The notes beneath the pieces were generated by a model. That model was not told where the DNA came from. It did not search any database and was given only the letters and a program-made list of their open reading frames with translations. Below are positions 54,130 to 64,000 of a stretch of 64,000 nucleotides of DNA, one piece after another. Source of the DNA: Panacagrimonas sp. (lineage in GTDB: Bacteria > Pseudomonadota > Gammaproteobacteria > Nevskiales > Nevskiaceae); NCBI GenBank assembly GCA_052387695.1, contig JBQTIX010000044.1:54620-118619 (forward strand), read 5' to 3'. Each line of letters starts with the position of its first letter. Position 1 is the stretch's first letter. A program made the translations under genes and the position numbers.

Positions 54130-54190
54130 CGCCCGCAACTCAACTGGGTAGAGTACTGCCCTCCGAAGGCAATCGTCAGACGATTTCCCT
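54130..54190 (+). pseudogene. Partial tRNA-Arg-like copy (D-arm + anticodon arm with CCG anticodon) directly upstream of the intact tRNA-Arg(CCG)
   Basis: 54139-54171 (CTCAACTGGGTAGAGTACTGCCCTCCGAAGGCA) matches the intact gene's D/anticodon arms almost exactly. Acceptor and T arms are absent or replaced by an unrelated hairpin. Confidence 0.45.
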
Positions 54191-54212
54191 GCTGTAGAAT
54201 CAGCGCCCACAA

Positions 54213-54289
54213 GCGCCTGTAGCTCAGCTGGATAGAGTACTGCCCTCCGAAGGCAGTGGTCGGACGTTCGAATCGTCTCAGGCGCACCA
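54213..54289 (+). tRNA. tRNA-Arg (anticodon CCG)
   Basis: GCGCCTGTAGCTCAGCTGGATAGAGTACTGCCCTCCGAAGGCAGTGGTCGGACGTTCGAATCGTCTCAGGCGCACCA: canonical cloverleaf, 7-bp acceptor stem, encoded CCA. Confidence 0.9.
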
Positions 54290-54316
54290 AATCAAGCACT
54301 TAGGCCACTTTCGCCG

Positions 54317-54490
54317 GTGCCCAAGCCTCGCGGTGTCCATGTAGGGCAAAGGTCTTTCGAGCCCTCCGCATTTCTCCGTGCCCAAACGAGGGCGCTGGTC
54401 GCGGTGCCCGTCCGGTGCCCAAATCGTGCCCACGCGGTGCCCAAATCGGGTTGGCCTTCGCGCCAAATGACGACTGCTCACCCGTGCCCA
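54317..54490. promoter_or_regulatory. Array of 7 direct repeats of GTGCCCA(A); four consecutive copies phased at exactly 11 bp (54404, 54415, 54426, 54437)
   Basis: Read directly. Lies between tRNA-Arg (+) and the 3' end of the HEPN-like gene (-). Confidence 0.5.
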
Positions 54491-54565
54491 AAGCTGGGCG
54501 AAAAACATCCGTAGGGCGAACCGGCAATCGCTCGCCGAACGCCACGAGGCGCGGGTTGCGGCCCG

Positions 54566-55222
54566 TCACACGACCGGGAACGCGATGCCGCCGTAGTCGA
54601 CCTCCGGGTGTTCGAGCATTAGCTCAAGGGTGATGGGCACCAGGTCGCCGAGCAGGGATGCTCCATCGCCGACCTGCTGCCGATTGACGCGCCCGTTCCA
54701 GGTCGCGCCCCCGTGGACCAGCTGATTGCGCAGGACGTATAGCCGGTCGAATACGATCCCCAGTACCACCAGCGTGTCCTGGCCCATGACCGAGCGCAGC
54801 GCAGCCTTCTGGCCGGCGGTGAACTGCTGCTTCCAGGCATCGCTGCTGTCGTGCTCGCGCAGCGCGCGCCAGAAAGGTTCGAAGACGAACCGATTGTCGA
54901 TGAGCACGCGCACCGGCCCGGTGAACTTCTCGAAGATCAGCCGGTGCAGCCGCTGCTCCGAATCCACGGAGAGCAGCCGCGCCAAGAACTGCCTCAGCAG
55001 TTCGCGTTCCGTCTGCTCGAATCCAAACGCTTGCGCATAGGCGGCGTTGAAGGCGATCCACAGGAAGATGAACCTTGCGTCGAGGTCCTCCGCTTCGGCC
55101 TCGGCGCGACGCAGCCAGGAGACGGCGCGATGGATACGAATGCGCGTGTCCTGGTCGTAGCTCGCCTCGCGATCCTTGAGTTTCGCCTTCAGCGCATCGG
55201 CCTGTGCTTGCATTGCGGACAT
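54566..55222 (-). CDS. HEPN-like protein (putative RNase / abortive-infection-type toxin), 218 aa
   Basis: C-terminal LYVLRNQLVHGGATW contains the HEPN Rx4-6H motif in its common RNxxxHG form; otherwise all-alpha composition. Family not assignable from sequence alone. Confidence 0.5.
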   Translation of the reverse strand: MSAMQAQADALKAKLKDREASYDQDTRIRIHRAVSWLRRAEAEAEDLDARFIFLWIAFNAAYAQAFGFEQTERELLRQFLARLLSVDSEQRLHRLIFEKFTGPVRVLIDNRFVFEPFWRALREHDSSDAWKQQFTAGQKAALRSVMGQDTLVVLGIVFDRLYVLRNQLVHGGATWNGRVNRQQVGDGASLLGDLVPITLELMLEHPEVDYGGIAFPVV

Positions 55223-55435
55223 GGGGCGTGAGCGGTAGTGGCGGTTCCCTACTGTGATGGACGAATTTCGTAGATCGCAAGTCCTTGGTTTTGGGGTGCT
55301 CGCGACGACAGGGTCATGGCCTAAACGCTCGGGGAGTCAACGGCTTCCTCTGTTCGGGAGGCTCTAGCGGGCGCAAACTCGCACCGAGAGGGCCATGGCA
55401 GAAGTGCCGCGCCGTGATAACAGAACGCCAAGGGG

Positions 55436-56737
55436 ATGTGGGTGAACTTAGCCGAGCAAAAGAAGAACTTTGTGACAGAACAACTGTTGGCGGCCTATAA
55501 GAAACCTGTGCCGGCGATCGCGGAAATAGCGGGTTTTGAACTGTCGGTCGACGAGGAAAGATTTCCGGCGGTCGTGCAGGAAACCTCCTATCGGGCGTTC
55601 GCCCCGGCGAACGTCGGTGTCCACCTTCCGCGGTTTCAGGCGCTGGCCGAACGTTTGGCGTCTGAGCGCCCAGCCGCCGTTCGGGCGCTGATCGAGGAGG
55701 AAATCGAATGGGCCGCCGGCATCGAATCTGGATTTGTCCCCGAACTCCGCCCCCGCTCGCTGCGGCGATATCGCGCCGCCTTATCGGTCCTAGTCGACCT
55801 GCTGGGCCAGAACTGGGTCTATCGATTCCGTGATCACCAACTGGAGATGGCGCCTCCCGACTTCACCGAGGCATCCAGTTCGCCAGAAGGTGTCGCGAAG
55901 CAGAAGCGGCAAATCAGGCTGGCAATGAAGACGGAGAGGCTGGCGCAACTGCAGCCCGAATCTGTTCGTCGATTCATTTTTGAAATGGAGGCCTCCAGAT
56001 CCCACCACGGGAAGCCCGAATGCTCAATCCTGGACTTGGTCGCCGACGGCAGCGCCTTGATCGACGACCTGACCGCCGCCAAGGCCGCTCTGGATGCTGG
56101 CAACGCAGAGCCGTTTCTAAACGTCGTTCAGCCCTATCTTCAGCTCGCGCAAGAGGATGATCGCTGCCCCGAGACCGGCCTGCGTCTGATCGATATTTGG
56201 CGTTATTTCCGCTATTTCTGGTCGCTGCCGTACTTCAGCACGCCAGGCCGAAACCTGTTCTATCTGGTCCGAGATCGGGCCCGCCCATTTCACCCTATCA
56301 TCGGCATCGCAGCTCTCGGCAACTTGATCGTACGTTTAGCAGATCGGGAGCGATTCCTGGGTTGGGACGTGGAGGGCATCCAGGCGTCTGTCGACGCCGC
56401 CCCTGATCCAGCCGAGCGGCAGACGCTTTTGGAACATCTGTATCGGCACTACTTGCGACAACTCGAAGTCGATATTGCCTCGCTGGACCCCAAGGGGATT
56501 GTGACGGCGGCCGAACTTGCGGCACCGACCATGGATCTTGTCCAGCGGCTCCTGTCAGATGCCCGCGAGAGTGCTTACCGAAGCGTCCGACGTACGTCGT
56601 CGGTCGTCGGTCGTCATAGCCTCTGGGGCTGTGTCGCGACCGATGACGCAAAGGCAGACGTCCTCGTCATCGGCGGCCGCACGTGCTTGGGCAAGCGAGA
56701 GGCGAATTGGCGTACCTTCGGTTCCGGCTTGGTATGA
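55436..56737 (+). CDS. Hypothetical protein (433 aa); central region RLIDIWRYFRYFWSLPYFSTPGRNLFYLVRDRARPFHPIIGIAALGN. Possibly DUF4338-like, but this is a recollection, not a verified match.
   Basis: Divergent from the HEPN-like gene. C-terminal ~60 codons overlap the convergent gene 56555-58216, so the true 3' end or frame is uncertain. Confidence 0.45.
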   Translation: MWVNLAEQKKNFVTEQLLAAYKKPVPAIAEIAGFELSVDEERFPAVVQETSYRAFAPANVGVHLPRFQALAERLASERPAAVRALIEEEIEWAAGIESGFVPELRPRSLRRYRAALSVLVDLLGQNWVYRFRDHQLEMAPPDFTEASSSPEGVAKQKRQIRLAMKTERLAQLQPESVRRFIFEMEASRSHHGKPECSILDLVADGSALIDDLTAAKAALDAGNAEPFLNVVQPYLQLAQEDDRCPETGLRLIDIWRYFRYFWSLPYFSTPGRNLFYLVRDRARPFHPIIGIAALGNLIVRLADRERFLGWDVEGIQASVDAAPDPAERQTLLEHLYRHYLRQLEVDIASLDPKGIVTAAELAAPTMDLVQRLLSDARESAYRSVRRTSSVVGRHSLWGCVATDDAKADVLVIGGRTCLGKREANWRTFGSGLV

Positions 56738-58216
56738 CTTCACCTCGATGCGCATCGACCACGCGCTGAAACGATCGCGCAGTTCAAAATCGTAGGTGCC
56801 CGTCCCTTGGTACCGGAGATCCGCGCCCCCGGGTTCGCCGGACTGCACGACGATCCCGGTCTCGAAGAGGGCGTCCGCGAACGCCTTTTCCGCCAGTTGT
56901 CCGATTTTTAGCAGCCGTCTGAAGTCGGCTTGCTCCTGGGCGATTGCCTCCGCATGGCTCAGTCCGGCAGCCAATGAAGTCGGGTCCGCTGCGAGTTTTC
57001 GCACCCGCGCCATGTCGACGCCTGATCGACGGATTTCCAGGTACTCGCGGCACCCCTCGCGATCGCCAGAAAGCTCCAAAAGGTCTTCGGTGCACGAGCC
57101 GGTCAGCAGCAGCAGGTGAGTGCGGCACTCGGTGGACATCAACGCCTGCGAGAGTTTGGCGTTGTCGGCCTTCCATTTCTGAAGACGAATCAGCGCGTCG
57201 CGATGGAGCTCTGCGTGGAGGTGCTTGATCTGCAGGACCGCGTCGCTCAGCTGACGCCCCAGGTCGACTAGGGTGAGCCGTCCCGGGAGGGGTAGGTCGA
57301 CGCCAAGCGGCATCAGGCTTGCCATCCAATCCATGGCGGGATCGAGTTCGTGGAGGTTCTCGAATATCTCCGTGCCGACGTCGTGCTCTTGCCCTCCGTC
57401 AAACGCACGCATTTCGTAGGCCGCTTTGAAGTCTCCTCGGCGATTAGGAATCACCTTTCGCTCGCCGATCGCGACTAGTCCGAGATGCCGAAGGCAGCGC
57501 CCGAGCCACTGCTCGGCCTGCTCTGCGGAAAGTCTGAGATGGGCTGCAAGAGCCGCGACCATGCCGGTCCGTTCGATGGTTTTGAGAATTGCTTCAAGAG
57601 CCCAACTCATGGCGGGATCGAAGTCGAACCCCTTTAGACTCGCGATGACGAAAGTCTCCCCCGGGCCGCGGGAGAGATCGTTGAGGAACGATGCGTGTCC
57701 CTGGCGACGTTCGTCGGCCGGAACGCTTGGCTCGACGAGGCCGAGGATCTTCGAGATCACGCGTGCCATCGCGTTGGCGTCCTTCCCGAACTTACCTTGC
57801 CGGATGCGCCTGTTCACGTCATCTGACGCGTCGTACAGCTTGAGCTCGTTCAGTGGTTCGGAAAGCTGCATGCCTTGATGGATCAGCAACGTCCGCCAGT
57901 CGGCGCCGACGGCGTGCAGAATGTCGAGCACAGGCTCCCCGATTGGACTCGTAGCCGATTCCTGGGCCAACTCGTGCCGGGCCTTGAGGACGCCGAAGCG
58001 ATTCGGGATCACCGCAAAACCTCGCGAACGGTCGAGCAGACCACCGAGGCTGTATCGAGACAGTAGGCCACAGAGCGCGCTGCACCATGCCAGCTTCTCT
58101 GTGTCGCCACCTGCAACTGGCATTGCGGCGAGGGTTCCGCATTTGGTCACATCGGCAAGCATATCCTCCGGTTCGAACCGCATCCCGGGCAGGCCCCAGC
58201 CGGCTTCGATGAGCAT
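56555..58216 (-). CDS. Large hypothetical protein with a DUF3883-like C-terminal domain (restriction-endonuclease-like fold)
   Basis: C-terminus …GTGTYDFELRDRFSAWSMRIEVKSYQAGTEGTPIRLSLAQARAAADDEDVCLCVI resembles the DUF3883 pattern (GYDfe…IEVK…S..E). The track ORF extends to 58528, but residues 1-58 are encoded by the tandem-repeat region, so ATG 58216 (MLIEAGWGLPG) is proposed. Confidence 0.5.
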   Translation of the reverse strand: MLIEAGWGLPGMRFEPEDMLADVTKCGTLAAMPVAGGDTEKLAWCSALCGLLSRYSLGGLLDRSRGFAVIPNRFGVLKARHELAQESATSPIGEPVLDILHAVGADWRTLLIHQGMQLSEPLNELKLYDASDDVNRRIRQGKFGKDANAMARVISKILGLVEPSVPADERRQGHASFLNDLSRGPGETFVIASLKGFDFDPAMSWALEAILKTIERTGMVAALAAHLRLSAEQAEQWLGRCLRHLGLVAIGERKVIPNRRGDFKAAYEMRAFDGGQEHDVGTEIFENLHELDPAMDWMASLMPLGVDLPLPGRLTLVDLGRQLSDAVLQIKHLHAELHRDALIRLQKWKADNAKLSQALMSTECRTHLLLLTGSCTEDLLELSGDREGCREYLEIRRSGVDMARVRKLAADPTSLAAGLSHAEAIAQEQADFRRLLKIGQLAEKAFADALFETGIVVQSGEPGGADLRYQGTGTYDFELRDRFSAWSMRIEVKSYQAGTEGTPIRLSLAQARAAADDEDVCLCVIGRDTAPEAMTTDDRRRTSDASVSTLAGI

Positions 58217-58462
58217 CCCCCATTTCGCGTTGAGCTCCGGAAGGGGAACGACGTCGAGCCCCAGGTAATCGGCGGCGAGGGCGTGAAACTCCTTCGAGGC
58301 CGGTTCTGTGCGGTTGTCCGCGTGTTTTATGCAGGGCACGGGACAGTGCTGGCATGGGTTACTCCGAATCTGGCTTAAGGGGCATTCCGAATTTGTGTGC
58401 TGGCATGAAGAGATCGAATCCGGACCCCGCAGGCCGCGGGGTCCGGACTCGTTGTCGGGCTT

Positions 58463-58830
58463 ACCGACAGCGGTCATACCGCCTCGTGGTGTACGCCACG
58501 CCATGGACTCGAAGGTGTCCGCCGCCAAGTGCGGGTCCGGATTCAGCCGGTGCCGGGAGTACCGGCGGCGGTCTTACCGCCTCGTGGTATTCGCCACGCG
58601 TAGACTCGAACGAGTCCTAAACCGCCAAGTGCGGGGTCCGGATTCAACCGGTGCCGGGGATACCGGCGGCGGTCATACCGCCTCGTGGTGTATGCCACGC
58701 CAGAGACTCGAATCGAGTCCGCTTCCGCTCGTCGCGGGCCCGGGGCTGGCCCGGGGCTGGCCCAGGGCCGGGATTGCCAGCAGCGGTTTTTCTCCGCCTC
58801 GTGGTGGTGCCACGCCTGCCCAGTGCGTAG
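58463..58830. repeat. About 3.5 tandem copies of a ~100-bp highly structured unit (period 98, 101, 116 bp), each containing several perfect hairpins (e.g. GGCGG…CCGCC, CGTGGtgtacgCCACG, ACTCgaacGAGT, CCGGattcaaCCGG)
   Basis: Read directly. An 11-bp-stem hairpin (CCGGACCCCGCaggccGCGGGGTCCGG) lies just upstream at ~58414-58440. One frame spuriously encodes AWRTPRGGMTAAGIPGTG three times. Confidence 0.7.
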
Positions 58831-59193
58831 GGCATCGCCAGATCGAATTGCAAATCGGTGATGTTCGTTTGTACTCGCCGGCACGGACTCCAAGATGCGG
58901 TCAAACGTTGTAAGCGTTTTCCTCAGAGGTACTTGCGACGATGCTGCCATCAGCTGTCGTTAGATCGCGAAGAGGCGCGGAGATATCGCGCACCGTTCCT
59001 GGCGTCCCGTTGCCGGTGCTGCCGGTGCTGCTGATGCGCACGCGGTTACGCGCGAAGATCTCCGCAAGCACATCCGGTTCATCAGGGATCTGGTCGCGGC
59101 GACCGACCTTTACTTGGCCGCAACGATGTAGCGGCGCGTGGCCGGCAAGCGCGTAACCGCCTCCCGGGTGCCGAGGCGGCCAATATGCAGAGG

Positions 59194-59224
59194 AGACACC
59201 GCGGGCCTGAGCCCGCGGTGTCTC
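59194..59224 (-). terminator. Perfect 14-bp-stem hairpin GAGACACCGCGGGC-ctga-GCCCGCGGTGTCTC overlapping the rtcB stop codon (terminator-like; no U-run)
   Basis: Read directly. Confidence 0.4.
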
Positions 59225-60398
59225 ATCCCTTCACGCACATCACCTGCTTGAGCGTATGCACGACCTCCACGAGGTCGGACTGGTTGGCCATCACGGCGTC
59301 GATGTCCTTGTAGGCCCCGGGGATCTCGTCCAGCACCCCGCCGTCCTTGCGGCACTCCACGCCCTCCGTCTGGCGCTTCAGGTCCTCCACCGTGAAGTGG
59401 CGGTTGGCCTCGTTGCGCGACATCTTGCGACCCGCGCCGTGGGCACACGAGCACAGCGATTCCGGATCGCCCTTGCCGCGCACGATGTAGCTGCGCGCAC
59501 CCATGCTGCCCGGAATGATGCCGAGGTCGCCCGCGCCGGCACGGATTGCACCCTTGCGGGTCACCCACACGTCCGCGCCGTAGTGATGCTCGCGCGCCAC
59601 ATAATTGTGGTGGCAGTTGATCGCCTCCTGCGTCGGCGTGAACGGCGGCAGGTGACGCGCCAGTGCCGTGAGCACCAGCGTCATCATCGCGCGACGGTTC
59701 TCCATGGCGTAGTCCTGCGCCCAGCCCACGGCTTCCAGGTAGTCGTCGAACAGCTCGCTGCCCTCCACGAGGTAGGCGAGGTCCCGATCCGGGAGCTGGA
59801 TTAAGTGCCGCTCCATCTCCTTGCGCGCCGACTCGATGAAGAACTGCCCGATGCGGTTGCCGATGCCGCGCGAACCCGAGTGCAGCATCACCCACACGTC
59901 GTCGTTCTCATCGAGACACAGCTCGATGAAGTGATTCCCGCCGCCAAGCGATCCCATCTGCCCCTGCCAGTCGGCCTTGAGCTTGGGGTACTTTGCCTGG
60001 ATGGTCTCGAGGCCCGGCGCGATGCGCTCCAGCGCATCAACCTGCCAGCGGGCATCCTTGTGCGCGCCCATGCCCACCGGCACATCGCGCTCGATCTGGG
60101 AACGAATCGTCTTGAGGCTGTCCGGCAGCGCCGAGGCCTTCAGCGACAGGCGTACCGCATTCATGCCGCAGCCGATGTCCACTCCGACCGCGGCCGGGAT
60201 GATCGCGCCCTTCGTGGGGATCACGGAGCCCACGGTTGCGCCGATACCCAGATGCACATCGGGCATGGCCGCCACATGGTGGTGAATGAACGGCAGGCTC
60301 GCGATGTTCGCAAGCTGCGCCTGCGCGTTGTCGGCGATATCGTCGGTGTAGATCTTCACGGGCACCTTGCCCTGTGACAGAACCTTTCGGATTGGCAT
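59223..60398 (-). CDS. rtcB: RNA-splicing ligase RtcB (3'-phosphate/5'-OH RNA ligase)
   Basis: 391 aa with RtcB hallmarks: metal/GMP-binding His/Cys/Asp residues (…DIGCGMNAV…, GGGNHFIEL, MLHSGSRGIGN, HNYV…, CSCAHGAGR). Confidence 0.9.
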   Translation of the reverse strand: MPIRKVLSQGKVPVKIYTDDIADNAQAQLANIASLPFIHHHVAAMPDVHLGIGATVGSVIPTKGAIIPAAVGVDIGCGMNAVRLSLKASALPDSLKTIRSQIERDVPVGMGAHKDARWQVDALERIAPGLETIQAKYPKLKADWQGQMGSLGGGNHFIELCLDENDDVWVMLHSGSRGIGNRIGQFFIESARKEMERHLIQLPDRDLAYLVEGSELFDDYLEAVGWAQDYAMENRRAMMTLVLTALARHLPPFTPTQEAINCHHNYVAREHHYGADVWVTRKGAIRAGAGDLGIIPGSMGARSYIVRGKGDPESLCSCAHGAGRKMSRNEANRHFTVEDLKRQTEGVECRKDGGVLDEIPGAYKDIDAVMANQSDLVEVVHTLKQVMCVKG

Positions 60399-60470
60399 GA
60401 CACGTCTCTCTTGAAAAGAGCCGCCCGGTCCCCGGGCGGCTAATGGTTTACTACGTTTCGGTGATCCATC

Positions 60471-61598
60471 TCACTTCGCCTTCAGGCTCACGAGCTGGCC
60501 CAGCAGGCCTTCCAGACCACCAAAGACCGTCAGCTTCTCGATCTTCTCGGTCACCTTCTCCAGCGCTTCCAGCTCCTTGAGTCGCATCAGGGTCGGGCTC
60601 TCCTCGATCAGCTTGGCGCTGTTGAGCAGGGAACGGGTTGCGTTCGCCTCCTCGCGGCGGCGAATCACGTTGGCCTGCGCCGCCTTCTCCGCCTGTACCA
60701 CGCTGTTGAGAATCTCCTTCATCTCGCCCGGCAGGATCACGTCCTTCACGCCGACACCGAGAACCTCGATACCCATCTCGGAAACGCGACCCTTCGCGTA
60801 CGAAAAGATGTCCGCGTCCAGGCTCGCCTTGTCGCCGAGCAGCTCGTCCAGCGTCTTTGCAGAAACCGCCTTGCGCAGACCGAACTGCAGCTCGCGGTAC
60901 AGGTAGTCCAGGTACTTGGCGACCTTGGTCTTCACCGTTACCGCATCCGTCACGCGGATGCTGGCCGACAGGTTCACACGCAGGCTCACCTTGTCCTTGG
61001 TCAACAGCTCCTGACCCGCCACCTCGACACTCTGCACGCGCAGCTCGATCACCTCCGCGCTCACGTTCTTCTGGAAGTTCCAGAAGGCATAGGCGCCCGG
61101 CGCCAGGGTCCGCGACAGCTTGCCGTCGACAAACACCAGGCCCGCGGACTCCGCCGGCACGTTCACCGCCACGGCGAAACGCTCCAGCACGCCGATCTGG
61201 CGCAGGCGCTTGGCCGCCGCGTCCGGAACTTCGAGACCCTCCGTCAGCGGCAGCTTCTCCACCGACACCGACACCGGGCCCTTCCAGTACAGCTTGCGGC
61301 TACCCGGTGCGAGCACGTCTTCCAGCTTGCCGTTCTTCGACACCAGGCCGACCTCGGTCACCGCGATATCGGCGAGCACAAACGTGTCGGCCAGCGCGGC
61401 GCCGAGACGCTGCACCAGAACCTCCACATCCTTGCCCGCGTATTCCACGGCCGCGAGATCGAACATGCGCACCTCGCTGCGCGCGAGCAGATCCCAGATC
61501 CAGGTCACGCCCGGACCGAGCACCCGCTCGAAACGACGGTTCTTGTAGAGCAGGGCGCGCTCACCGTCGCCAACCACGACCCGCTTGATTCCCAACAT
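60471..61598 (-). CDS. SPFH/band-7 (stomatin/prohibitin/flotillin-like) domain protein
   Basis: 375 aa; characteristic SPFH segment DVILPGEMKEILNSVVQAEKAAQANVIRRREEANATRS and C-terminal coiled coil. Internal ATG 61598 chosen (the upstream ORF extension is Cys/Arg-rich junk). Confidence 0.8.
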   Translation of the reverse strand: MLGIKRVVVGDGERALLYKNRRFERVLGPGVTWIWDLLARSEVRMFDLAAVEYAGKDVEVLVQRLGAALADTFVLADIAVTEVGLVSKNGKLEDVLAPGSRKLYWKGPVSVSVEKLPLTEGLEVPDAAAKRLRQIGVLERFAVAVNVPAESAGLVFVDGKLSRTLAPGAYAFWNFQKNVSAEVIELRVQSVEVAGQELLTKDKVSLRVNLSASIRVTDAVTVKTKVAKYLDYLYRELQFGLRKAVSAKTLDELLGDKASLDADIFSYAKGRVSEMGIEVLGVGVKDVILPGEMKEILNSVVQAEKAAQANVIRRREEANATRSLLNSAKLIEESPTLMRLKELEALEKVTEKIEKLTVFGGLEGLLGQLVSLKAK

Positions 61599-61932
61599 GG
61601 CATTTCTCCTTTGGGGGTGGTGGCAGCAACAACATCCAGTCCGCGCTCGCTGCCATGACGCGGACTGTTCAACGAAATAGGAAGGGCGGCCCCTGACGAC
61701 ACCGCGGGGAGAAAGGGCGATCACCGTCGGGAGATGGCGGGGTCCGGTACGCGGCCCGTGCCGACAGCACACGGTGATGCGTACCCTTGTCCGTCATCCG
61801 CCGAAAGCAACGGCGATCTCTCGGCCGTCGGTGTCGCTGTGGCTTCCGGACTCATCTGGCCGAGGCCCGAATCCGCCGGACGCCACACGGGGCTTCCCCG
61901 GTTTGCAGCAACACTGGTTTTCAAGACCAGAT

Positions 61933-62005
61933 CGAAGTGGAGCGGGAGTCGAACCCGCGACAGGCGCATTACGAATACGCTGCTCTACCCTCTGAGCTAT
62001 CCAGT
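61933..62005 (-). tRNA. tRNA-Thr(CGT)-like gene, probably a degenerate or remnant copy
   Basis: Minus strand reads CACTGGA-TA-GCTCAGAGGGTAGAGC-A-GCGTATTCGTAATGCGC-CTGTC-GCGGGTTCGACTCCCGC-TCCACTT-C. D, anticodon (CGT) and T arms are canonical, but the acceptor stem has 2 mismatches and no CCA. Confidence 0.45.
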
Positions 62006-62218
62006 GGTGAAAGGGCATCAGCCCTTCCGAGGCATCGGCCGTCGTGCGTCCACGGCATACGCACCGGCAATGCCGGGCGCACCGGACGGGTGGGACATCT
62101 CCCGAACCCGCGCCGCTGTGAACCGCCGTACAGATCGATGCCGATTGGCGTCTCGTGGGAAACGCCAATTCATGGGGCGGGCTGCGACATCAACTCCGCC
62201 GAATCTCGAACTCCTTCG

Positions 62219-62317
62219 CGAACGGAAAACAAAACGCCCCGGGAGGCAGGCCTTCCGGGGCGTTCGCGAATCTATCGGAAGGTCGGAGTACCGACCTTCC
62301 TGTTTGTCGTCAGGTCA
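62219..62317. terminator. Back-to-back terminator hairpins: CGCCCCGGgaggcaggccttCCGGGGCG with AAAACAAAA upstream (intrinsic terminator for the minus strand), and GGAAGGTCGGagtaCCGACCTTCC followed by TGTTTGT (plus strand)
   Basis: Read directly; GC-rich stems with flanking T/A-runs. Confidence 0.5.
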
Positions 62318-63410: not shown

Positions 63411-63484
63411 GCAAGGCTGGCCTAGCGGTCGGGCTCCTGCCTTCCAAGCAGACGAGACGGGTTCGACTCCCGTGCCTTGCTCCA
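63411..63484 (+). tRNA. tRNA-Gly (anticodon TCC)
   Basis: GCAAGGC…CTGCcttCCAaGCAG…ACGGGTTCGACTCCCGTGCCTTGCTCCA; anticodon loop CTTCCAA with U33/A37; discriminator U + CCA. Confidence 0.8.
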
Positions 63485-63488
63485 ATTC

Positions 63489-63576
63489 GGATGGTTCGCA
63501 TAGCGGCCATTGCACCTGGCTGTAAACCAGGCGACCCCTCGGGTCTTCCAAGGTTCGAGTCCTTGACCATCCACCA
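63489..63576 (+). tRNA. tRNA-Tyr (anticodon GTA), long variable arm
   Basis: GGATGGT…CTGGCTGTAAACCAG + extra arm GCGACCCCTCGGGTC + T-arm GGTTCGAGTCC + CCATCCACCA. Confidence 0.85.
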
Positions 63577-63605
63577 GTACGCGTTCTTCAGTATTCAATT
63601 TTTAT

Positions 63606-63681
63606 GGTGGCCGTAGCTCAACGGCAGAGCCCCTGGTTGTGAGCCAGGAGGTCGCGGGGTCAGCACCCGTCGGTCACCCCA
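63606..63681 (+). tRNA. tRNA-His (anticodon GTG) with G-1 / C73
   Basis: G-GTGGCCG-TA-GCTCAACGGCAGAGC-C-CCTGGTTGTGAGCCAGG…CGGTCAC-C-CCA. The extra 5' G pairing with discriminator C is the His identity element. T-loop reads GTCAGCA (non-canonical), so confidence is reduced. Confidence 0.7.
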
Positions 63682-63686
63682 ACATC

Positions 63687-63829
63687 GGGTCGTTCGTCCA
63701 AGGGCAGGACCCCGGACTCTTTGATTCGGCGAAGCCGGATCAAAGCAAAACCGTGCTCTGTGTTGTTGAAGCGGCTGCACCGCTTCAACAATGCGGCCGA
63801 TCTCGGTTCAAGTCCGAGGCGACCCACCA
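63687..63829 (+). ncRNA. 143-nt tRNA-like gene with a ~72-nt insertion in the variable region: canonical acceptor stem (GGGTCGT/GCGACCC), D-arm, T-arm (CTCGGTTCAAGTCCGAG) and CCA, but an 8-nt anticodon-like loop
   Basis: Read directly. The extra region contains perfect hairpins (CTTTGAT…ATCAAAG; TTGTTGAAGCGGctgcaCCGCTTCAACAA). Position inside a tRNA operon. Confidence 0.45.
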
Positions 63830-63832
63830 AAT

Positions 63833-63917
63833 GCCGACGTGGTGAAACGGAATACACGCGACGCTCAGAACGTCGTGCCCTCAGGGCTTGCGAGTTCAAG
63901 TCTCGCCGTCGGTACCA
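63833..63917 (+). tRNA. tRNA-Leu (anticodon CAG), long variable arm
   Basis: GCCGACG…CGACGctCAGaaCGTCG + extra arm TGCCCTCAGGGCTTG + T-arm GCGAGTTCAAGTCTCGC + CGTCGGTACCA. Confidence 0.85.
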
Positions 63918-63922
63918 ACTCC

Positions 63923-64000
63923 ACCCCCGTAGCTCAGCGGAACCAGAGCGTCCGCTTACGAAGCGGAAAGTCGGAGGTTCAAATCCTCCCGGGGGTACCA
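63923..64000 (+). tRNA. tRNA-Arg (anticodon ACG)
   Basis: ACCCCCG-TA-GCTCAGCGGAACCAGAGC-G-TCCGCTTACGAAGCGGA-AAGTC-GGAGGTTCAAATCCTCC-CGGGGGT-A-CCA. Confidence 0.85.

Follow-up and report, generated by a model that had tools for sequence, protein, structure and literature searches.

The present analysis concerns a stretch of 64,000 nucleotides (nt) from Panacagrimonas sp. (contig JBQTIX010000044.1; hereafter the window), and in particular a block at positions 54130-62312 in which genes for the RNA ligase RtcB and an SPFH/Band-7 protein lie close to a HEPN-like gene and other defence-related sequences. The original prediction had read this block as one undescribed module of RNA damage and RNA repair with tRNA-derived boundaries. 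All of the features that it listed were recovered at or near the places it had assigned to them, using open reading frame (ORF) listing, ARAGORN, Tandem Repeats Finder and Rfam, with protein profiles assigned through Pfam and PADLOC. From comparison with related genomes, we conclude that the 54.1-62.0 kb portion probably consists of two independent neighbours, namely an RNA-repair operon and a variable, decaying defence-island segment. The conserved part belongs to the b7a-tRNA / Band-7 / RtcB type, so that the arrangement is not a new one: RtcB encoded beside a Band-7 protein and a tRNA-resembling RNA was predicted by Burroughs & Aravind (2016), as recounted in bioRxiv 10.1101/312249 (Wolin laboratory). 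The rest is defence-island debris. As proposed here, the operon would run on the minus strand from ~62.31 to 59.19 kb and would comprise, in order, two structured RNA elements (A and B), the tRNA-like RNA, trailing hairpins, the SPFH gene, rtcB and an end hairpin, with the defence-island segment (54.3-59.1 kb) occupying the space between this operon and tRNA-Arg(CCG). What appeared to be a novel toxin/repair island is thereby reduced to a predicted RtcB operon and debris, and ought not to be listed among new defence systems.

A conserved linkage of tRNA-like RNA, SPFH and RtcB

The rtcB gene (59223-60398, minus strand) encodes a protein of 391 amino acids (aa) matching the full Pfam RtcB profile (E 7e-134). 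In alignments with the P. horikoshii and T. thermophilus enzymes the motifs MPDVH, GVDIGCG, GGGNHF, HSGSRG and CAHGAGR are all kept and, to judge from these retained metal-binding and histidine-guanylylation motifs, the enzyme is catalytically intact. RtcB reseals RNA breaks that carry 2',3'-cyclic-phosphate (or 3'-phosphate) and 5'-OH ends; on the strength of this established biochemistry, the window enzyme would be expected to reseal damaged RNAs. Adjoining rtcB on the same strand is the Band-7/SPFH gene (60471-61598, minus strand), which encodes a 375-aa protein of the 'slipin' kind and whose start codon at 61598 is preceded by AGGAG. The N-terminal region of the protein is beta-rich; an SPFH domain and a long coiled coil at the C-terminus follow, and there is no clear membrane anchor. 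Judging by other SPFH proteins, it may well form a soluble ring or cage, and the parallel with Ro60 and its Y RNAs suggests that the coiled coil could drive assembly of such an oligomer as a scaffold. Also identified was a strong hairpin over the rtcB stop codon (59190-59227, minus strand; inverted repeat I7, with 17-nt arms that are 94% complementary), which probably marks the end of the operon.

Homologues of the SPFH protein number in the thousands, the nearest (97% identical) coming from a Panacagrimonas metagenome-assembled genome, locus L001 (L-numbers denote related genomic loci retrieved for comparison). Identity is at least 73% among the 120 best protein matches. A genome search with the same protein gave our comparison set, the 80 best genomes, which come from both Nevskiales and Lysobacterales and show at least 70% identity. 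RtcB is encoded directly downstream of SPFH in approximately 65 of these 80 genomes, bearing out that part of the original prediction which assigned both proteins to an RNA-repair module. Upstream of SPFH, a motif search of the 84 related loci with sufficient DNA in that direction recovered a tRNA-like element on the same strand, 300-600 nt away, in 81, and ARAGORN called tRNA-like genes upstream on the SPFH strand in 66 of 80 loci. These comparisons show that the three-part linkage of tRNA-like RNA, SPFH and RtcB is conserved across Nevskiales and Lysobacterales. No further conserved neighbour was found beside SPFH-RtcB among the compared loci, and in Lysobacterales the pair is flanked by housekeeping genes.

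The other genes of the block, which we identify below as a HEPN-like gene and fragments of druA and tmtA, do not share in this linkage. Not one of the 80 other genomes has them beside SPFH-RtcB: 79 of the loci lack them altogether, and the sole trace, in L001, is a fragment of the HEPN-like gene. Because orthologous genomes do not keep these genes linked to SPFH-RtcB, the idea of a single co-functioning unit of RNA damage and repair fails. Co-occurrence of the HEPN, 433-aa, DUF3883 and rtcB genes across genomes had been suggested as a check on that idea, and no such linkage was found in orthologous genomes.

A structured leader around the tRNA-like RNA

The b7a-tRNA of the window (61934-62006, minus strand) is called as tRNA-Thr(cgt) by ARAGORN and scores 48 bits against the Rfam tRNA model. 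It had been taken for a degenerate tRNA-Thr at the boundary of an island, a role contradicted by its recurrence as a leader component in nearly all of the loci surveyed (81/84). We aligned 82 proximal tRNA-like units, representing 80 distinct sequences, and found that the D arm (essentially invariant) and the T arm (nearly invariant) were paired in 100% of cells, and the anticodon stem in 99.7%, with both-sided changes in all five of its pairs. Conservation of the acceptor stem is confined to its inner four pairs, the outer three being unpaired in 66-71 of the 80 distinct sequences. The covariation score of the aligned copies was 0.270, compared with 0.080 for shuffles and no more than 0.061 when the partners were slid. 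These alignments show the tRNA-like RNA to be under structural selection.

The window copy has mismatches at pairs 1-72 and 3-70 and is not followed by CCA. Because the outer acceptor pairs are generally unpaired across the family, this imperfect acceptor and absent CCA represent the family norm and not decay. Among the 73 units with a seven-nt anticodon-like loop, the frame of the loop is largely kept (U33 in 61/73, A37 in 67/73), yet 25 different triplets were found, and both anticodon stem and triplet (CGT, TGT) vary even between relatives whose surrounding DNA is ~90% identical. With a conserved acceptor of only four pairs, no CCA and an unconserved anticodon, the element cannot be a normal tRNA. 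A functional tRNA-Thr(CGU) at 61934-62006 was rejected on the same grounds, neither a seven-pair acceptor with CCA nor a conserved anticodon being present. A decayed but once genuine tRNA gene, or an att remnant at the right end of an integrated element, would account for the ARAGORN call and Rfam score, for the imperfect acceptor stem without CCA, and for the proximity of a genuine tRNA array 1.4 kb away. We consider this exceedingly improbable, since the element keeps the same distance and strand relative to SPFH across two orders, is embedded in further conserved RNA structure, and combines a truncated acceptor that is usual in the family with a covarying anticodon stem, a pattern that decay would not preserve.

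The proximal unit is often accompanied by another. Two abutting tRNA-like units, the second on the 5' side, were identified in 64 loci (e.g. L003 2060-2133 and L004 6404-6477), and in most relatives the distal unit possesses a GNRA-type tetraloop in place of the anticodon loop. In the clade of the window the distal unit has been lost, and a small hairpin remains at its position.

The tRNA-like element sits within a longer non-coding leader whose structure we predict from conserved pairing. Just 5' of it lies element B (62042-62143, minus strand), a three-helix RNA detectable by BLAST in ~65 distant loci and folding, in the RNAalifold consensus, into an outer stem that encloses two hairpins; both-sided changes preserve 13 of the 24 pairs. 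Element B also displays the GG-N10-GC spacing of a sigma-54 promoter, but the GG is unconserved, and this reading was ruled out because compensatory changes show the positions to covary as an RNA hairpin. On the 3' side of the tRNA-like element are trailing hairpins (61860-61933, minus strand), likewise kept through compensatory changes in relatives. Furthest upstream, element A (62220-62312, minus strand) comprises two hairpins, the second of them terminator-like and bearing a U-tract, is flanked by two copies of the palindrome TTCGCGAA, and recurs upstream of the module in ~30 loci; in L087 (2359-2441) and L088 it stands directly upstream of an 84%-identical rtcB without SPFH. No Rfam family matched element A or B, element A giving only sub-threshold matches to terminator-like families. 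Possible roles of element A are those of an insulator, an attenuator or a small RNA.

By analogy with Ro60 and its Y RNAs, the tRNA-like RNA might serve as a cofactor, tether or decoy that steers the complex to damaged tRNA-like substrates. A more specific proposal, to which we give a low probability, is that the RNA with its hypervariable anticodon could act as bait or decoy, or as specificity guide, for anticodon-loop nucleases; displayed alongside RtcB by a soluble, vault-like cage of SPFH protein, it would allow tRNA cleavage to be sensed or absorbed and then repaired. If this were true, a nearby tRNA array, its interrupted tRNA-Lys (both described next) and the repeated arrival of HEPN genes beside rtcB would form a single locus for countering tRNA damage. 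The comparative picture gives several handles on what bacterial RtcB systems repair and on the part played by RNAs that mimic tRNA, including the invariant body of the RNA, its four-pair acceptor and hypervariable anticodon, the usually tandem units, the covarying helices around them, and a predicted soluble SPFH protein that is at least 70% identical across two orders.

A dense tRNA array adjoins the SPFH-RtcB module in several lineages (window 63411-64000, plus strand; L082 and L083 7134-8243; L005 1428-4971; L006 738-3738). In close relatives it consists of 12-13 genes, mostly 4-12 nt apart, with His or Lys present in some of these relatives and absent from others; L005 has 32 genes and L006 has 20. 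In the window, tRNA-Lys (63687-63829, plus strand), 1.7 kb from the RtcB operon, bears a 68-nt insertion in its anticodon loop after position 36 (ARAGORN, intron mode). The same gene is uninterrupted as tRNA-Lys(UUU) in L083, L082 and L001, and the window copy further differs by T34C and, in its anticodon stem, by a C-to-G change. Folding of the insert gives two long hairpins, the first of which pairs with the anticodon (fold z -6.6), and no other copy of the insert was found in the window, the retrieved loci or viral contigs. The interrupted tRNA-Lys may be a scar or a pseudogene, or something stranger. On the far side of the array, at ~1-7700 of L081-L083, we also identified another defence island, encoding Fic, Multi_ubiq/Prok-E2, JAB/ThiF, BubE (ubiquitin-like conjugation), FRG and HNH.

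The variable segment between tRNA-Arg and the operon

The segment begins at tRNA-Arg(CCG) (54213-54289, plus strand; ARAGORN, Rfam tRNA 64.6 bits), which is preceded by a partial copy of its D and anticodon arms (54130-54182, plus strand; 85% identical to 54214-54266 over 53 nt). The match of L001 to the window stops at 54271, a position within the tRNA-Arg 3' end; because relatives diverge there, we regard this 3' end as an insertion hot spot. Further in, L001 has ~100 nt in place of 54656-59931, truncating its rtcB; in L093 and L094 the HEPN-like gene has different neighbours on both sides; and L081 keeps 91% identity between 63082 and 58970 and diverges to the left of 58970. The content of 54.3-59.1 kb differs from the window in each of these four loci, and because it varies between such close relatives the segment reads as a recombination hot spot and not as a functional module. 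The description of this stretch as island-like, variable and without a working integrase therefore holds, no intact integrase ORF having been found in the window and the only integrase-like trace being a peptide vestige in the tandem repeats considered below. Extended to the whole block, it applies to 54.3-59.1 kb alone, since the SPFH-RtcB part is broadly conserved, an outcome that the original prediction had itself foreseen as speaking against an island. As regards a tRNA-integrated island, neither an integrase nor flanking direct repeats of the tRNA-Arg 3' end were found. As a separate observation, L001 (3286-3928) keeps only the first 156 codons of rtcB, which run directly into the final 29 codons of the HEPN-like gene; this is a 5.3-kb deletion relative to the window, or possibly an assembly artefact.

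Next to tRNA-Arg lies a cluster of GTGCCCA(A) repeats (54317-54491, plus strand) with five exact copies of GTGCCCAA and two variants, GTGCCCGT and GTGCCCAC, interspersed among them. Seven exact matches to GTGCCCAA occur in the window, of which five fall inside these 175 nt, all on the plus strand; ~1.8 matches are expected per 64-kb window, and none of 100 shuffles reached seven. Clustering is thus confirmed, and the phasing attributed to the array as a whole (11 nt) is restricted to its central copies. The array sits where relatives break synteny, L094 having an insertion on the HEPN-gene side and L093 diverging on the tRNA side, and its repeats may be protein-binding sites tied to the recombination hot spot.

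The HEPN-like ORF (54566-55222, minus strand) is intact and encodes 218 aa with the motif RNQLVHG. Its product had no match in Pfam, NCBIfam, PADLOC or PDB sequences; the family to which it belongs numbers more than 5,000 proteins and shows conservation of DRLYVLRNQLVHGGATW. R165, N166 and H170 are invariant in 36 aligned members, in agreement with the R-x4-6-H motif, and the AlphaFold model is all-alpha (pLDDT, the predicted local distance difference test, 84.8). Based on motif and model, we accept the protein as a predicted HEPN-superfamily member of an unnamed family outside the Pfam models; its gene presumably specifies an RNase-type effector acting alone. The motif noted in the original prediction is accordingly a genuine family feature, and the tie to RtcB is not: across nine independent genomic contexts of the family, window included, an RtcB gene was present within the 6-10 kb searched in only two (window and L087) and missing from the other seven, and linkage of the HEPN-like gene to RtcB was rejected. 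These contexts range from islands with integrase, IS21, WYL regulators, PLD and type I restriction genes to plain housekeeping surroundings. No MNT antitoxin was found as a co-oriented neighbour in the window or in any of the nine contexts. Members of the family often lie near a gene for a WYL-WCX regulator, sometimes overlapping it in a probable operon (L087 3272-6648; L093 822-5644; L097 9012-10654). Genes for DUF2779 and a double-AAA ATPase also occur near members, which hints at a recurring type of island.

The two proteins that had been proposed as further parts of the module proved to be truncated relatives of known defence proteins. The 433-aa ORF (55436-56737, plus strand) is a 3'-truncated DruA (Druantia) fragment (PADLOC DruA 1.3e-59), covering positions 60-322 of 675 in the PADLOC profile and 63-121 of 297 in the Pfam DruA profile; homology stops near 56580, and the tail of the ORF runs antisense into the 3' end of the neighbouring TmtA fragment. 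The latter (56555-58336, minus strand) is a 5'-truncated relative of Tiamat TmtA (PADLOC TmtA 3.9e-27), reported earlier as a protein of ~550 aa ending in a DUF3883-like domain. The ORF is real, with homology spanning ~593 aa (its mechanical extent, 56555-58528 on the minus strand, continues into the tandem repeats), and the resemblance to NOV_C/DUF3883 is weak (E 0.14). What remains is the C-terminal ~55%, at profile positions 418-979 of 1063, and the stronger homologues, nearly all of ~1,060-1,140 aa, align from their residue ~440. Full-length DruA is absent, and no partner gene of Druantia, including the DruE helicase, was matched among the proteins of the region. Profile searches thus did place two of the proteins in defence families, as fragments; the HEPN-like protein went without a match and the SPFH protein was matched. 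Taken together, the sequences of the DruA and TmtA fragments are most likely non-functional debris.

Between the TmtA fragment and rtcB are hairpin-rich tandem repeats of ~100 base pairs (bp) (58405-58815, minus strand), present as three copies and a degenerate one. Tandem Repeats Finder reported 2.6 copies of a 101-bp unit at 58462-58720, and a separate repeat search gave three core copies; because a further degenerate copy is visible by eye at ~58775-58815, the earlier count of 3.5 copies is reasonable. Folding of the region is far more stable than that of its shuffles (z ~-7.3) and equally good on both strands. No other copy was found in the window, 95 related loci, plasmids or phages, and there was no Rfam match; a known mobile element was rejected as their source, no plasmid, phage or related locus matching. 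One frame of the repeats reads GVAYTTRRYDRRRY, and the single metagenome match to the core is the C-terminus of a tyrosine recombinase (GHADPRTTRRYDRARY), over 21 nt. The degenerate upstream copy is preceded by DLQFDLAM...G...TTTRRR, resembling an integrase end. Because one 21-nt match in so large a collection could be chance, we keep this as a lead only, the evidence being thin; it is suggestive of a duplicated vestige of an integrase 3' end. Rejected likewise were a derivation from tRNA-Arg 3'-end att copies (z 3.0, p 0.013 before correction for 42 comparisons; orientation wrong for attL/attR) and a 23-25-nt inverted match of 54527-54551 to the repeats, judged to be at chance level.

An alternative is that the repeats are functional non-coding RNAs of the RtcB operon, Y-RNA-like or tRNA-like. 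They lie downstream of rtcB on the strand of the best folds, are very stable, and display in one hairpin a compensatory change between copies (GCCGG/CCGGC versus GTCGG/CCGAC). We think this very unlikely. The absence of any Rfam match and the equal folding of both strands count against it; so do the lack of a counterpart downstream of rtcB in ~65 other loci and in L081 (91% identical up to 58970), and the strong hairpin and opposite-strand gene remnant that separate the repeats from rtcB. Lying beyond the terminator-like hairpin and occurring in no related locus, they could not be upheld as a part of the module. The repeats are probably a lineage-specific recombination or duplication scar outside the operon.

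The remnant just mentioned (58964-59128, plus strand), which lies between the repeats and rtcB, comes from a RiboL-PSP-HEPN gene of which it retains the last ~52 codons. By tblastn it is 74.5% identical to residues 131-182 of a protein from L081, and it matches Pfam PF18735 (E 2e-6) at profile positions 149-189 of 191. In L081 the gene is intact and convergent with rtcB, and there are no repeats.

HEPN sequences in this position bear on whether the entire block might be one RNA-damage/repair module of the toxin or abortive-infection type, in which HEPN cuts, RtcB reseals, and accessory roles fall to the 433-aa, DUF3883 and SPFH proteins. In the 218-aa protein the motif is real and, from the model, the HEPN fold appears to be so too, and several observations weigh both for such a module and against independence of the two neighbours. 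HEPN genes recur near this rtcB with a somewhat non-random flavour: in the window the RiboL-PSP remnant abuts rtcB and the HEPN-like gene is 4 kb off, the intact RiboL-PSP-HEPN gene of L081 adjoins rtcB, and in L087 a close RtcB homologue (84% identical) lies 3.7 kb from a HEPN-like family member. We nevertheless hold a single module to be improbable. The HEPN-like, druA and tmtA genes are absent from the other SPFH-RtcB loci as described, most HEPN-like contexts (7/9) lack RtcB, DruA and TmtA are truncated fragments of genes known for defence against DNA phages, and the genes of the block lie on different strands, parted by a terminator-like hairpin, pseudogenes and repeats. Further points tell against our interpretation as two independent neighbours in other respects. 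For the source of the ~100-bp repeats, a duplicated integrase vestige is a lead only; no sigma-70-like site was found for the operon, whose promoter and transcript limits are predicted; and, according to the passage of bioRxiv 10.1101/312249 that describes it, the b7a module is everywhere a computational prediction, its b7a-tRNA lacking experimental validation. Assignment to the b7a type rests on that secondary description of Burroughs & Aravind (2016).

Comparison with known defence and RNA-repair systems

The components of the variable segment each depart from the systems to which they are related. Compared with Druantia, the DruA of the window lacks its C-terminal half and its partner genes, and compared with Tiamat, TmtA lacks ~440 N-terminal residues. 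Relative to HEPN RNases such as HEPN-MNT, AbiV, Csm6/Csx1 and RiboL-PSP, the HEPN-like protein matches no Pfam HEPN family and adjoins no MNT antitoxin or CARF domain, its gene being solitary, sometimes with a WYL regulator.

On the repair side, the classical Rtc arrangement (RtcR-RtcA-RtcB) is not represented, as neither the RtcA cyclase nor the RtcR sigma-54 activator was found in the window region or among conserved neighbours. An SPFH gene inside the rtc locus of P. aeruginosa has been described in a 2026 paper (PMC13086221). The Salmonella rsr-yrlBA-rtcBA operon (Ro60/Rsr, YrlA, RtcB, RtcA, RtcR) is likewise an RtcB operon with a scaffold-type protein and a tRNA-mimicking non-coding RNA, for which roles as cofactor, tether or nuclease decoy have been proposed. 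The window differs from it in having SPFH instead of Ro60/TROVE, with no RtcA or RtcR adjacent; no TROVE match was obtained among the flanking ORFs tested, and the protein-coding part of the operon is SPFH and RtcB only. Unlike YrlA, the window RNA keeps a full anticodon-like arm, and membership in the YrlA family (Rfam RF02553) was rejected (22.7 bits, E 0.03-0.45, against a gathering threshold of 69 bits).

The closest counterpart is the b7a-tRNA / Band-7 / RtcB arrangement, on which our literature search found no later paper linking Band-7, RtcB and a tRNA-like RNA. The window possesses the same three components in the same order and agrees with every feature of the description in the relevant passage of bioRxiv 10.1101/312249. 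Its tRNA-like unit is single, where most relatives carry an abutting pair. Compared with the arrangement as described at second hand, the window also displays conserved RNA structure flanking the tRNA-like unit on each side and, further upstream, an element made of a hairpin and a terminator-like hairpin.

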